Below, piece by piece: positions 2,826 to 8,898 of a DNA stretch of 64,000 nt (positions within the stretch are counted from its first letter, which is position 1; the number at the start of each line of letters is the position of its first letter). Under the pieces are notes generated by a model. It was not told the origin of the DNA and did not search any database. It was given only the letters and a program-made list of their open reading frames with translations. The position numbers and the translations under genes were made by a program. The stretch is from a virus (lineage: Duplodnaviria; Heunggongvirae; Uroviricota; Caudoviricetes), in the IMG/VR virus record IMGVR_UViG_3300019376_000001; one strand, written 5' to 3'.

Positions 2826-3221
2826 TTACCAATCTTCGTTTTGCAAATCTTCAACTCGACATCTCTCTTCATAAATTGCCTCTTGCATAATGGTTTGTGC
2901 CCAAGGGGTTAAAGCTGGACGGCTATTAACCCTTGTGCGAATTATATCAGAAGGATATCTATTATACAAGAAGTATCTTTCCATTCTGCCATCGGAATAG
3001 AAAATCAATCTTTCTTTCCAAAGAAGAGGAGTTGTACCTTCCATATCTTCTGCCATAACAGCGATATTGTCTACTGGCTTAATAATTTCTTGAGTGAAAG
3101 AATCAATCTTTCCACCATTAGCAAGCCATTCTTTTGTGATAATAGTAAAATTTTCATCAGCATTACCAATGCCATAGGCATCGTCAACAAAAATTTTATC
3201 TAAATTCTGCCATTCGCTCAT
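2826..3221 (-). CDS. Hypothetical acidic protein, last gene of the YcaO/rSAM operon
   Basis: 131-aa ORF whose start overlaps the 3' end of rSAM-2; GGAGG RBS. Confidence 0.75.
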   Translation of the reverse strand: MSEWQNLDKIFVDDAYGIGNADENFTIITKEWLANGGKIDSFTQEIIKPVDNIAVMAEDMEGTTPLLWKERLIFYSDGRMERYFLYNRYPSDIIRTRVNSRPALTPWAQTIMQEAIYEERCRVEDLQNEDW

Positions 3222-4647
3222 GACGCTCCTCCTCCATTACATTTTCATATAAACGAATAAGATTCTGCGCATTTGGATAAAATACATGGTAAGGAGAAAT
3301 GTTTTCTTTTAACCAATCCAAAAATCCTAAATCATGGTAACGTTTAATCAAATGCTTAATCTTACTCTTTAAGAAGTTGCAAACCGTAGGGTCTAAATGA
3401 TATGGGTCATTAAATTTTTCCATTTGTTGACCAGGGCATCCACCCATACAATATCTATTATAGAAACAAGAGTCGCAACCTAAAGTTCCCACATGGTTAT
3501 TTACCATTAGATTTCTAATAGCCTGATGAGGATTATTAGATTTAATACCTGTAATTGCCCCATTTTCAACAGTAAACCAACCATATAGATTTTTATTATA
3601 AGCAGTTCTATGGCAAGGGCAAATTGCTAAATCACCTAAACGAACTGTTAAAGTATTTTGTAACGTACATCCAAGAAATTCATCAGTTTCTGCTAAATGA
3701 TAAGGCGTATATGCACTCATTTCTTCGTCTTCGATAGCTAACAAATTCTTATCATAATAAGTTTGGTTAATACCAAAACCGAAAATACAAGCTTTAATTG
3801 GGTCATTATCATTACGCTCTAAAAGACCATCAATTAAAATATCCTCAAAATCTAAGAACGCTTGAATTTTCTCTGGAGTCCAGTCTCCATTTCTTACTTC
3901 AAGCATCATAACTTCTCCAAGAGTCAAGCCATATTTCTTTAGCATTTCTTTCCACCACTTATAATTCTCTGGCCACATTTCAATAGAGGCTGCCGCAATC
4001 ATCGGATGGAAGCCAAATCCATTGTGCTTAGAAAATGAAAACGCCATATCATAAAAGTCATCATCATGAGTAATTTTCGCATTGACATTAGGGCGAATAT
4101 CATTATCTACATACTTTCCATCAATAGAGATAGAGAAAATAAGTGGAACACCAATAGCTCTAAACTTGTCAATATATCCTTGAATAATTGCAGCTCTCTT
4201 ACGGTCTTTAAGAAAACTGCAGTTAGAAGGAATCATGAACTGGCGCACTTGCAATCCAGCTAAAAGATAATCAAAAGTAATATCTAAGATATCAGTTCCA
4301 AATTTACTATGCCAGATTTCGCCAGTATAAAACTCAATCTGAGGAATACAATAATTATTTGCAATAACCCAGTCATAAAAAATTTTAAGGTTTTCTTTGA
4401 TTTGCTCTGGGTTTAAAAATTCCTTTGGATAAAGGTCAGGATATTTAACCAAATAACAATACTCACACTTTTGGTTACACTGAGAAGTAATAAATAACTC
4501 CACATGCCCACGAGGTACATCCATCGCACTATTATTTGGTCTCCAAGTAGAGAAGAATCGTTTATCTAATACAACTTGCAATAATTTATCTTGTTCTTGC
4601 TGGAATAATTCCTTGTCGTCATGAATATTTACAATCACATTATCCAT
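3196..4647 (-). CDS. Radical SAM enzyme with SPASM domain (rSAM-2)
   Basis: CNQKCEYC (CxxxCxxC) plus a full SPASM Cys set: GCTLQ...ICPCHR...CDSCFYNRYCMGGCPG...VC. Confidence 0.93.
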   Translation of the reverse strand: MDNVIVNIHDDKELFQQEQDKLLQVVLDKRFFSTWRPNNSAMDVPRGHVELFITSQCNQKCEYCYLVKYPDLYPKEFLNPEQIKENLKIFYDWVIANNYCIPQIEFYTGEIWHSKFGTDILDITFDYLLAGLQVRQFMIPSNCSFLKDRKRAAIIQGYIDKFRAIGVPLIFSISIDGKYVDNDIRPNVNAKITHDDDFYDMAFSFSKHNGFGFHPMIAAASIEMWPENYKWWKEMLKKYGLTLGEVMMLEVRNGDWTPEKIQAFLDFEDILIDGLLERNDNDPIKACIFGFGINQTYYDKNLLAIEDEEMSAYTPYHLAETDEFLGCTLQNTLTVRLGDLAICPCHRTAYNKNLYGWFTVENGAITGIKSNNPHQAIRNLMVNNHVGTLGCDSCFYNRYCMGGCPGQQMEKFNDPYHLDPTVCNFLKSKIKHLIKRYHDLGFLDWLKENISPYHVFYPNAQNLIRLYENVMEEERHERMAEFR

Positions 4648-6016
4648 TCGATCTTACTCTCCTTTCTCCTTCTTCAATATAAGCTTTCGCTCCGTTTAAT
4701 AATAACTTAAACAAACCAACAGGTGTCAAGCTATGAGAACCTGTTACATTATAATTATCCTTGATACAATAAGAAGAATGACCTGCCATAAAATGCGCAG
4801 CACGCAACGCTTCATCTTCATTCAAGTATTTTCTTTCAATCTCATCTGCAAGAGCGAGAGTACGAATCAAAGCGGTCGTGTTAACCATTCGCGCAGTTGA
4901 CCATGGATGGTTATAATAACCCATAAATCTCTCATGCTCTTTATAACCTTCTGCATCCAACACATATACAGGACCATCTTCATTTACCCACTGGTTAAAG
5001 TTAATAGTACCATCTTCAACACGTCCAGAAGATTGTGCAAACTTCTTATAGTCTTCATATAATGAAGTAAATCCTTCATGGCAAGTAGATACCAGATTAT
5101 CTGGCAATAAACAAACCATAATAGACCCACTGCCGCACAAAGTAGAACAGTGTTCATATGTTGCATTTAAAGGCATTGGTTCGCCAAAATAAGGCATGAT
5201 ACTTTCATAGTATCTAAAGTAATGGTTTCTATAATTCTCAACTTCAATTTCATTGCAAAGACGACAGAACTCAGCAAAGATTTCGCCATCTTTCTTAGTG
5301 ACTGGCGCAGGTACGGCAGTGTTAGGTACTGTACAAGACATCAATACATTTGGCAGATTTAACTCATTGATTCTCAAATAAAAATTCTCAAAAAATTGGA
5401 AATACTCAATAATCTTTTGCTTATCGCAAAGTTCTCTTACTGAATAAGTATCCAAAGTCTGCTTGAATACGATTTCTAAAACAACATTATTTGGAAGTCT
5501 TTCAGGAATCATATCCATTAACTTATTGAAATTTTCAATACATCTCTTGGTTACGCCCTTACCTCTATTTGGGTCATTGATATACTCAGGACCGTCCATA
5601 GAAAGCTGTAAAGTGAATCTAAAAGTTCTTTCTGGGTACTTGGCAAACTGGTCAGTTAAACCAAATACTTTATTTGTCCACTCTGGATATGAGAAGTTTG
5701 TAGAAGAGAAGAACTGGTCGAAATATGGATAATATTCAATAACTTGAGTAATCAAATTATAAATTCTTTCCATATGCAAAAATGGCTCTCCACCCCAAGT
5801 TTCAATCTTACGAAGCTGGTCAATATTTGGAAACCACTCTTTCATTTGGTTAAAATAGTAATCGCCTTCAAAACTCTCTGCTAACTTTTCATCAATCTTA
5901 GCTAACACAGGATTCTTATCGATGTTACAATATCTACATTTTAGATTGCAGGTGCCGCAGGTGTAAAACACCGCGACACTGCGCTCTTTATTCATACAAT
6001 TTAATCCGCATTTCAT
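4640..6016 (-). CDS. Radical SAM enzyme with truncated SPASM/Twitch-like domain (rSAM-1)
   Basis: CNLKCRYC, WGGEP motif, LCGSG...STCH and a later YCIKD; lacks the CxxCxxxxxCxxxC second-cluster motif. Confidence 0.92.
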   Translation of the reverse strand: MKCGLNCMNKERSVAVFYTCGTCNLKCRYCNIDKNPVLAKIDEKLAESFEGDYYFNQMKEWFPNIDQLRKIETWGGEPFLHMERIYNLITQVIEYYPYFDQFFSSTNFSYPEWTNKVFGLTDQFAKYPERTFRFTLQLSMDGPEYINDPNRGKGVTKRCIENFNKLMDMIPERLPNNVVLEIVFKQTLDTYSVRELCDKQKIIEYFQFFENFYLRINELNLPNVLMSCTVPNTAVPAPVTKKDGEIFAEFCRLCNEIEVENYRNHYFRYYESIMPYFGEPMPLNATYEHCSTLCGSGSIMVCLLPDNLVSTCHEGFTSLYEDYKKFAQSSGRVEDGTINFNQWVNEDGPVYVLDAEGYKEHERFMGYYNHPWSTARMVNTTALIRTLALADEIERKYLNEDEALRAAHFMAGHSSYCIKDNYNVTGSHSLTPVGLFKLLLNGAKAYIEEGERRVRSNG

Positions 6017-8846: not shown

Positions 8847-8869
8847 AAAACTCCTTCCTTTTTAATTAT

Positions 8870-8898
8870 ATTATAACATAAATTTTATGTTAAGTCAA
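8870..8898 (-). promoter_or_regulatory. Promoter of the YcaO-repeat protein-rSAM operon
   Basis: TTGACT-N17-(TGT)TATAAT about 25 nt upstream of the YcaO ATG; GGAG RBS. Confidence 0.8.

Follow-up and report, generated by a model that had tools for sequence, protein, structure and literature searches.

What does a phage do with a YcaO enzyme and two enzymes of the radical S-adenosylmethionine (rSAM) type that are encoded around a repetitive protein of 334 amino acids (aa)? To our knowledge, the chemistry of peptides that are made on the ribosome and modified post-translationally (RiPPs), to which rSAM and YcaO enzymes contribute, is known almost entirely from cellular genomes and small peptides. 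The question is raised by a five-gene operon at positions 2826-8898 of a 64,000-nucleotide stretch (the window, whose positions are used throughout unless stated) of the IMG/VR virus record IMGVR_UViG_3300019376_000001. A first-pass annotation of this DNA had described a YcaO and dual rSAM system acting on the repeat protein, and had offered two readings, a multi-core RiPP released at lysis or the tailoring of a phage structural protein. We propose, with a probability of about 55%, that the locus is a phage-borne RiPP-like cassette which matures a whole protein and not a short peptide, the product being used as an effector in phage-host or phage-phage conflict. The repeat protein and the rSAM pair form one unit and the YcaO is an add-on to it. 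We found no description of this cassette in the literature.

An operon of five nearly abutting genes

The operon is read on the minus strand, and its parts are, in the direction of transcription:

8974-9005, minus strand, intrinsic terminator with a 14-bp stem, a 4-nt loop and a T-rich tail, which ends the upstream unit (106-aa gene)
8870-8898, minus strand, operon promoter, TTGACT-17-TATAAT with an upstream TG (extended -10), sigma-A/sigma-70-type, 11/12 positions
7041-8846, minus strand, YcaO, 601 aa, PF02624
6032-7036, minus strand, repeat protein, 334 aa
4640-6016, minus strand, rSAM-A, 458 aa, radical SAM with a Twitch-like auxiliary-cluster region
3196-4647, minus strand, rSAM-B, 483 aa, radical SAM/SPASM
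2826-3221, minus strand, small acidic protein, 131 aa

The dedicated promoter, its insulation by an upstream terminator and the five nearly abutting genes had all been claimed by the first-pass annotation, and all of them were found. From YcaO to the 131-aa gene the intergenic gaps are 4, 15, -8 and -26 nt, and a Shine-Dalgarno of GGAGG type precedes each of the five open reading frames (ORFs). The promoter is placed in a 179-nt intergenic gap and is base-for-base identical in L070, the locus of the closest relative, while the flanking bases differ; there, a hairpin of different sequence stands at the same place as the terminator. Promoter-like matches are not enriched across the region (48 found vs 45 expected).

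The conserved unit is a repeat protein with two radical SAM enzymes

We gathered about 70 loci from contigs encoding relatives and from an rSAM-B profile scan of IMG/VR (46 loci) and of GTDB genomes (15 loci), with 9 others, and scored them with purpose-built hidden Markov models (HMMs), so that the locus counts given here depend on those models and on what the scans returned. The rSAM-B profile was required, since a single-sequence YcaO scan of IMG/VR returned no relative. In INPHARED, megablast with the cluster and tblastn with rSAM-B found nothing, and with YcaO we obtained one match only, to a ycaO of the E. coli type that belongs to a prophage-like record.

In all loci that cover the upstream DNA (about 65), the gene immediately upstream of rSAM-B is rSAM-A. 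The precursor gene, in turn, stands immediately upstream of rSAM-A. Near relatives share the same N-terminal domain in this precursor. In a distant branch the precursors are divergent analogues with other leaders, M[SGA]F[TSD]W...E[IL]R.N.D, followed by acidic D/S/N/Y/G repeats, and sometimes two or three of them are found in one locus. Enzyme clusters that usually lack the repeat protein had been named beforehand as a sign against the system, and this synteny is the opposite; nor was there a close match to a characterised bacterial cluster. The conserved unit is the repeat protein, rSAM-A and rSAM-B, together with the small protein: the last 26 nt of rSAM-B are shared with the 131-aa gene, and most near relatives encode a small protein of weak conservation after rSAM-B. 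By their synteny, and by a conserved N-domain joined to a hypervariable core, these loci agree with the general definition of a RiPP system, in which a gene-encoded precursor that has both a recognition region and a variable core lies next to the enzymes that modify it.

The YcaO is an accessory and not part of the core of the cassette, because only 11 of the approximately 70 loci encode it (the window, L003, L011, L012, L015, L018, L056, L058, L062, L067 and L070) and because the near-isogenic L005 is without it. Wherever both occur (11/11 loci) the YcaO gene is either within the cassette or borders it, and in most cases 4-20 nt separate it from the precursor gene. The earlier idea of a YcaO and two rSAMs forming one system with the repeat protein is therefore sustained for the precursor and the rSAM pair, and had to be loosened for the YcaO.

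The cassette is frequent and varies quickly. The rSAM-B family comprises at least 480 clusters, nearly all of them metagenomic. In L005, the nearest long relative, the flanks are 83-89% identical to the window and the cassette proteins 46-59%. Several contigs carry two cassettes. Bins of metagenome-assembled genomes with a cassette belong to Lachnospiraceae, Oscillospiraceae, Faecalibacterium, Roseburia and Clostridium, to which one Clostridiales Family XIII isolate is added. The host of the window phage is probably a member of Lachnospiraceae or Oscillospiraceae.

The repeat protein: a folded domain and a variable core

The 334-aa protein is divided into three parts:

6713-7036, minus strand, N-domain (residues 1-108), a folded three-helix domain ending in invariant Cys105-Arg-Asn
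6071-6712, minus strand, repeat core (residues 109-322), the nonapeptide C-S-N-[SG]-x-H-S-[NQ]-T on both sides of a central segment containing Tyr/Cys; presumed substrate region
6035-6070, minus strand, C-terminal motif (VTVIDIMNSYKP), a TxIDIxN-type tail with a short strand conserved across the family

No model of Pfam, NCBIfam or PHROG is matched by this protein. A word-based search gave 14 relatives, and a profile of the N-domain run against 1.84 billion representatives recovered at least 293 clusters, in which the domain is always N-terminal. Its AlphaFold2 model (predicted local distance difference test score, pLDDT, 80-95) has helices at residues 13-30, 47-62 and 87-100, and M1, Y20, D63, C105 and N107 are invariant in the family, with the C[RKH]N junction present in 105/124 members. 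Fold searches with the N-domain yielded nothing beyond generic helical matches (Z <= 7.2) and, in Foldseek, uncharacterised phage proteins at E >= 0.057.

The repeats noticed by the first-pass annotation are borne out by autocorrelation, which reaches 0.41, 0.40 and 0.35 at lags of 9, 18 and 27 residues, and by Tandem Repeats Finder, which reports 27-nt periods. The core of the window protein, whose period of 9 is strict, is made up mainly of polar residues (S 56, N 50, T 27, G 19, H 17, C 13), and residues 109-334 are modelled at a pLDDT of about 30, that is, as disordered. The same architecture is kept across the family, with an N-domain of ~105 residues, a hypervariable low-complexity core and a short C-terminal strand. 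Pooled family cores contain N 16%, S 15%, G 13%, T 12% and C 7%, SNG being the top tripeptide; the number of Cys per core goes from 0 to 43, and 117 of 124 cores have at least one. The comparison with L070 illustrates how this protein changes. The two repeat proteins are 68% identical overall, with hardly any change in the N-domain and the tail. Their cores are set apart by substitutions, some of which replace Cys with Asn or Ser, as well as by indels of 9, 9 and 18 residues, which correspond to whole repeat units. As modelled, then, the repeat protein is a conserved folded domain joined to a variable disordered core. It is also basic, with an isoelectric point (pI) of 8.97 (9.48 for the N-domain). 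An enrichment of N-glycosylation sequons in the core was considered and rejected, as 15 sequons are present vs 18 +/- 3 in shuffled sequences.

The radical SAM pair

The radical SAM calls made in the first pass were confirmed for both enzymes, and the SPASM call for rSAM-B. CxxxCxxC is invariant in the two families, which assigns them to the radical SAM superfamily, with Pfam PF04055 below its gathering score in each (19.9 and 21 bits vs 29.5). In rSAM-A the motif is CNLKCRYC (residues 23-30), and C294, C312 and C417 are invariant in a Twitch-like arrangement; its match to N_Twi_rSAM has E = 5.7e-15, at 55 bits vs a cut-off of 170. In rSAM-B the motif is CNQKCEYC (residues 57-64) and seven SPASM cysteines, C327, C345, C391, C394, C400, C404 and C423, are invariant in 22 sequences, including a CX2CX5CX3C motif; TIGR04085 scores 25 bits, with a cut-off of 27. 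The best matches of rSAM-B are weak and are thioether formers (QhpD 3.4e-7, PapB 2.3e-6, CteB 5wgg); over both enzymes the list is QhpD, PapB, CteB, CcpM and GggB, none of them near a curated cut-off. Single-sequence searches of the PDB with the rSAMs were uninformative. The nearest Atlas clusters are viral and unnamed, and rSAM-A and rSAM-B are not recent paralogues. Judging from these sequence resemblances, thioether-type cross-links are our leading guess for the chemistry of the pair.

The YcaO

Superfamily membership of the YcaO is clear (PF02624, 1.7e-30, 106.9 bits vs a gathering score of 25.7, profile positions 1-324 of 325), as had been called in the first pass. At a finer level the best NCBIfam model is YcaO_for_S12 (NF040716), which aligns to residues 12-300 with 117.4 bits, far from the equivalog cut-off of 700. 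The match to the E. coli YcaO structure (PDB 4q84, 1.4e-21) covers residues 12-297 and the ATP/Mg motifs SNGMxAGNT..EA..GLSE.FER are kept. About 90 full-length relatives were found on phage-size contigs, and bacterial YcaOs match the N-half only, so that the C-terminal half is specific to this phage clade. With a pI of 4.75 the enzyme is acidic.

Other YcaO classes fit poorly. The SagD-type cyclodehydratase model of thiazole/oxazole-modified microcins (TOMMs; TIGR03604) gives 34.9 bits vs 219, with no ThiF/E1 in the operon and no PxPxP, and the model of TfuA-dependent thioamide YcaOs of the thioamitide/McrA type (methan_mark_1) gives 42.4 bits vs 365, with no TfuA match in the operon. The first-pass annotation had indeed remarked that E1/ThiF, TfuA, a C39 protease and an ABC exporter are all lacking, and no operon product matched any of them. 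The lack of E1 and TfuA, however, is not unusual for a YcaO of this type, as the closest solved and curated relative, E. coli YcaO, works without either (PMC13063428).

We also considered a strict link between the presence of YcaO and Cys-rich cores, which was discarded as the correlation is only weak. In addition, the rSAM pair is missing around more distant members of the phage clade (L069, positions 7001-10689, and the context of P0340), which are arranged as tandem YcaOs or have a ThiF-like gene nearby; this suggests that there are other YcaO-based modules in these phages.

Small proteins and further accessories

Three more features adjoin the operon:

1815-2765, minus strand, 316-aa TIM-barrel protein, U32-like, just outside the interval first reported
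2796-2824, minus strand, promoter-like site before the U32-like gene, TTGATT-17-TATAAT with TG, 10/12 positions
9026-9346, minus strand, 106-aa acidic protein, a frequent upstream neighbour, with the terminator between its gene and the operon

The 131-aa protein matched no family or fold (Pfam, NCBIfam, PHROG) and gave no usable Atlas hit; from its position, like that of HxsD or PqqD, it is possibly an adaptor.

The limits of 2826-8898 set by the first-pass annotation proved too narrow, and the system extends to the U32-like gene. Homologues of the 316-aa protein, in one to three copies, are located at most 3 kb from the rSAM pair in about 29 loci. Its AlphaFold2 model is a TIM barrel (pLDDT 82.6) with the U32 peptidase Mk0906 (5d88) as top PDB match (Foldseek 7e-5), and VIA gives Z 12.9 to Mk0906 vs 10.5 for the next chain. 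The Atlas look-alikes are 'collagenase/U32' clusters and Pfam U32 (PF01136) is reported as 'faint' on the L067 homologue, while the window protein had no Pfam match at E <= 0.01 and a PDB profile search of the family found nothing. Conserved Cys pairs run through the family. We take this protein to be a frequent accessory and a probable further tailoring enzyme.

Whether the 106-aa protein belongs to the system is uncertain. Its homologues adjoin the cassette in L001, L005, L062, L065 and L068, and are within a few kb in L008, L020, L021 and L059. Some loci add glycosyltransferases or a third rSAM. In L065 (2239-4137 and 11595-13589) and L066 (2973-5063) this third rSAM is large (about 630-690 aa) and accompanied by three U32-like paralogues; the sources of these loci are a Muribaculaceae-binned contig and a Clostridiales Family XIII isolate, and L065 has two complete cassettes.

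The carrier phage and the time of expression

The carrier is a large gut phage, with a genome record of 191,974 bp that is 98% complete by CheckV. That it encodes virions, as noted in the first pass, is supported by a large terminase related to the group of SPbeta, Geobacillus E3 and Enterococcus VRE9_4, and by a structural arm with portal and tape measure headed by a phage sigma factor. The gene of this sigma factor (44149-45201, phrog_5767 at 3.1e-53) stands at the start of the structural arm and is divergent from the early/accessory arm. The operon belongs to the accessory/tRNA arm, at a distance of 35 kb from the structural arm, which uses the other strand, and is near an array of 37 tRNA genes (genome coordinates C1:136672-152009) which covers nearly all amino acids and whose first two genes are at 125-200 and 1649-1721 of the window. 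Early or middle expression of the operon is suggested by its host-type promoter, by its location next to the tRNA array and by a structural arm that is separate and has a phage sigma factor at its head. Neither an integrase nor a serine recombinase was found in the phage genome, and a role in lysogenic conversion is therefore unlikely for this phage.

Two ideas on decoding were dropped. The adjacent tRNA-Asn and tRNA-Gly genes do not point to the Asn- and Gly-rich protein, being simply the first two of the array. Recoding of TAG in the window phage was rejected, as TAG=Gln gave no gain in ORF structure and the array contains no suppressor tRNA. The window phage uses the standard code, whereas many relatives of the cassette need TAG=Q (L001, L002, L003, L004, L067, L068 and L069 are stop-codon-recoded phages).

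A proposed pathway and its alternatives

We suggest the following pathway. Host RNA polymerase would read the operon from the sigma-A-type promoter before the late genes that depend on the phage sigma factor. In the precursor, the N-domain would be the docking ('leader') element for the enzymes. The rSAM pair would modify side chains, or C-alpha/C-beta positions, of the core by means of 5'-deoxyadenosyl radicals, most likely giving Cys-to-carbon thioether cross-links, and possibly His/Tyr/Trp-to-carbon links in the Cys-poor relatives; C-C links of His, Tyr or Trp to Asn/Gln C-beta, or epimerisation, would be other outcomes. The small protein, translationally coupled to rSAM-B, may act as its adaptor as HxsD does for HxsC. 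Where a YcaO is present, this acidic enzyme of the E. coli type would dock on the basic folded precursor and phosphorylate backbone amides of the core, which would yield thioamides (or azolines at Cys, Ser or Thr) without an E1 or TfuA partner; the opposed charges of enzyme (pI 4.75) and precursor (pI 8.97) mirror the pair of E. coli YcaO and uL16. The U32-like protein could add a further, possibly oxygen-independent, modification. The product, a cross-linked, protease-resistant and polar protein, would serve as a fast-evolving effector, for example in superinfection exclusion or counter-defence. Such an early-expressed conflict effector is probably a better description of the product than a virion part or a released bacteriocin, because the cassette diverges faster than its flanks, repeat units turn over, cassettes are duplicated and accessories shuffled, and because HXS offers a precedent.

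A number of observations weigh against this proposal. The HMM similarities from which the rSAM chemistry is deduced are weak and far below every curated cut-off. The search for a RiPP recognition element (RRE) advised by the first-pass annotation for the rSAMs and the YcaO brought no match, as no RRE, PqqD-like or protease model hit any product of the operon. The precursor has neither signal peptide nor membrane segment, so that an envelope site of action like that in HXS is not evident. L067 pairs its YcaO with a Cys-poor core, in line with the weak correlation mentioned above, and in some relatives (L005, L006) the repeats have almost no Cys or aromatics, for which a single cross-link chemistry may not fit all cases. 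Also, in many relatives the cassette is found beside tail-fibre-like or lysis genes, which fits a role in the virion as well.

This last observation leads to the first of three competing explanations, that the virion contains the repeat protein as a fibre, a whisker or a decoration, anchored or oligomerised through the N-domain and hardened against gut proteases by rSAM and YcaO chemistry. Many relatives have the cassette just after large tail-fibre-like ORFs or beside holin/endolysin genes, the loci are hypervariable as receptor-binding genes are, and the conserved N- and C-terminal ends enclose a variable middle. In the window phage, however, the operon is distant from the structural arm, on the other strand and beside the tRNA array, and has a promoter of the host type whereas the structural genes are headed by a phage sigma factor; furthermore, the N-domain has no match to a known virion fold and there is no structural annotation in PHROG. 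We consider a tailored virion protein, which was one of the two readings first offered, unlikely, and not favoured in this phage.

The other reading first offered, in which the leader is cleaved off and the array processed to numerous small modified peptides (a bacteriocin, a signal or a metallophore) which are released at lysis, would account for a leader-like conserved N-domain with an invariant junction motif followed by tandem near-identical nonapeptides, and a core rich in His, Cys and Asn could bind metals. The terminase is also related to those of SPbeta-like phages, which carry the RiPP sublancin. Against it, the cassette lacks genes for a protease, an exporter or immunity, synteny of the M28-like peptidase nearby is limited to the near-isogenic L005, and no cleavage motif recurs between the units. 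With its conserved C-terminal strand and a central segment that is unique, the protein looks more like a single product, and a genome with no integrase or recombinase leaves no lysogen to benefit. We therefore hold multi-core release to be the least probable of the three. Scarcely better placed is a division of labour in which only the rSAM pair acts on the repeat protein and the YcaO thioamidates a ribosomal or other folded protein of host or phage. The closest characterised relative of the enzyme modifies uL16 (PMC13063428), the cassette can dispense with YcaO, and distant members of the phage clade live in other contexts, with ThiF or as tandem YcaOs. Yet its score with NF040716 is 117 vs 700, its C-terminal half is unrelated to bacterial YcaOs, it keeps its place within the cassette in all 11 loci that have both, and some non-acidic enzymes of the E. 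coli YcaO group are found in RiPP contexts (PMC13063428), all of which makes a separate YcaO improbable.

Beyond the maturation of a whole protein into a conflict effector, a more far-reaching version may be drawn, which we put forward only tentatively and consider doubtful as it stands. Large phages of gut Clostridia would carry an undescribed class of rSAM-matured repeat-protein effectors, a viral mirror of HXS. The paired rSAMs would place a new modification on repeats of the Ser-Asn-Gly type, and YcaO, U32-like proteins and glycosyltransferases would be add-ons. The product would serve early in infection, either in excluding rival phages or in disarming a barrier of the host.

Other features of the window

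The TTGATT-17-TATAAT element with an upstream TG that precedes the U32-like gene has six copies on the minus strand (298-326, 530-558, 627-655, 1592-1620, 1780-1808 and 2796-2824), before small genes and tRNAs of the tRNA arm. These copies resemble a family of phage promoters that is separate from the TTGACT promoter of the operon. Upstream of the cassette, at 9514-11984, a peptidase similar to M28/M20 (351 aa) and a functionally unassigned protein of 470 aa are encoded, which are 83-85% conserved in L005. A 117-aa protein with a cREC_REC (cyclic-phosphate-processing receiver) domain (2.7e-18) is located at 1050-1403.

Between 14000 and 44000 the GC content is 0.40-0.46 vs 0.33-0.39 in both flanking arms, ORFs are mostly short, and AT skew is strongly negative (to -0.27) around 28-42 kb. 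At 15235-16836 two ORFs on opposite strands overlap nearly fully, of 533 aa (minus) and 489 aa (plus), neither with a Pfam match. Two genes look like auxiliary metabolic genes, namely a membrane protein similar to Na/sulfate symporters or citrate transporters (13252-14676) and a FolD-type methylenetetrahydrofolate dehydrogenase/cyclohydrolase (42622-43479).

Relation to known systems

How far, then, is this cassette a known thing? As judged from sequence models, none of the named classes can be assigned to it (E. coli YcaO equivalog, TOMM, TfuA-type, HXS, triceptide, the sactipeptide/ranthipeptide models or Pfam U32), and its enzymes are placed at superfamily level only, as YcaO, radical SAM and SPASM. 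The cassette is common (at least 480 rSAM-B and at least 293 precursor clusters) and virus-borne, the repeats of its substrate extend up to several hundred residues, and its evolution resembles that of an arms-race locus. Should the modifications be confirmed, the rSAM/SPASM enzymes would gain a new substrate class and probably a new chemistry, E. coli-type YcaO enzymes a second natural type of protein substrate, and the HXS defence a phage-side counterpart. As a system of five or six genes it is concrete and clonable.

The nearest parallel in design is HXS, where two adjacent rSAMs mature a repeat-protein effector that blocks the entry of phage DNA, and where the small protein HxsD binds HxsC (PMC13128918). 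HXS is bacterial, 99.7% in Pseudomonadota, with the gene order D-B-C-A, and its effector HxsA, which is processed at the N-terminus, combines a peptidoglycan-binding domain with five HxS repeats (PMC13128918). The present cassette shares with it the two adjacent rSAMs, a small partner (~100 aa), a protein-sized effector with short polar His-containing repeats that needs maturation, and, as far as we infer, a setting of conflict between phage and bacterium. It differs in being carried by a phage of Bacillota-like hosts, in the N-domain, in an array of 226 residues and in the YcaO and U32-like accessories. The family models keep the two apart (HxsB 31.4 vs 370, HxsC 15.2 vs 268), the precursor and the small protein match no model, and PADLOC returned nothing specific.

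With regard to the YcaO, the E. coli enzyme alone thioamidates folded uL16 with sulfide, ATP and Mg and recognises the tertiary structure of its substrate, an acidic enzyme thereby facing a basic protein (PMC13063428). The phage enzyme resembles it in length (601 aa vs 586 in E. coli), in the ATP/Mg motifs, in being acidic beside a basic folded substrate and in the lack of an E1-like or TfuA partner. It departs from it in that only residues 12-297 align, in the C-half of the phage clade and in the genomic partner, which is the repeat protein and not uL16.

The rSAM pair recalls QhpD, which acts on the protein subunit QhpC, as well as PapB (ranthipeptides), CteB (SCIFF) and the sactipeptide synthases, by the CxxxCxxC motif, the Cys-containing substrates and an auxiliary-cluster domain, a full SPASM in rSAM-B and a partial Twitch-like one in rSAM-A. 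Unlike these thioether maturases it has no N-terminal RRE, always joins two unrelated rSAMs and is faced with a substrate 5-10 times longer with a folded leader. Sactipeptides and ranthipeptides are defined by thioether bonds from Cys sulfur to C-alpha or to C-beta/gamma, for which the 117 of 124 cores with Cys would offer the sulfur. The core units [C/H/Y/W/F]-x-[N/Q] also resemble the aromatic-x-Asn cross-linked by triceptide rSAMs (YhhB, HaaB, HtkB, ChlB), which are SPASM enzymes and act on tandem motifs too; the scores are low (YhhB 21 bits vs 445, ChlB E = 0.076) and the repeats of several relatives have no aromatics.

Members of the U32 family such as UbiU/UbiV, TrhP and RlhA are oxygen-independent hydroxylases. 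The 316-aa protein is like the U32 family in its TIM barrel, its best PDB match (Mk0906), the conserved Cys pairs and an anaerobe-associated context, and unlike it in the absence of a Pfam match at E <= 0.01 and in the closeness of other TIM barrels (Z 10.5). Taken together, what is known from these systems is that rSAM and YcaO enzymes mature a gene-encoded substrate; what is unusual here is that such enzymes are carried by phages, that the substrate has the size of a protein and a folded leader, and that the cassette is abundant and modular.

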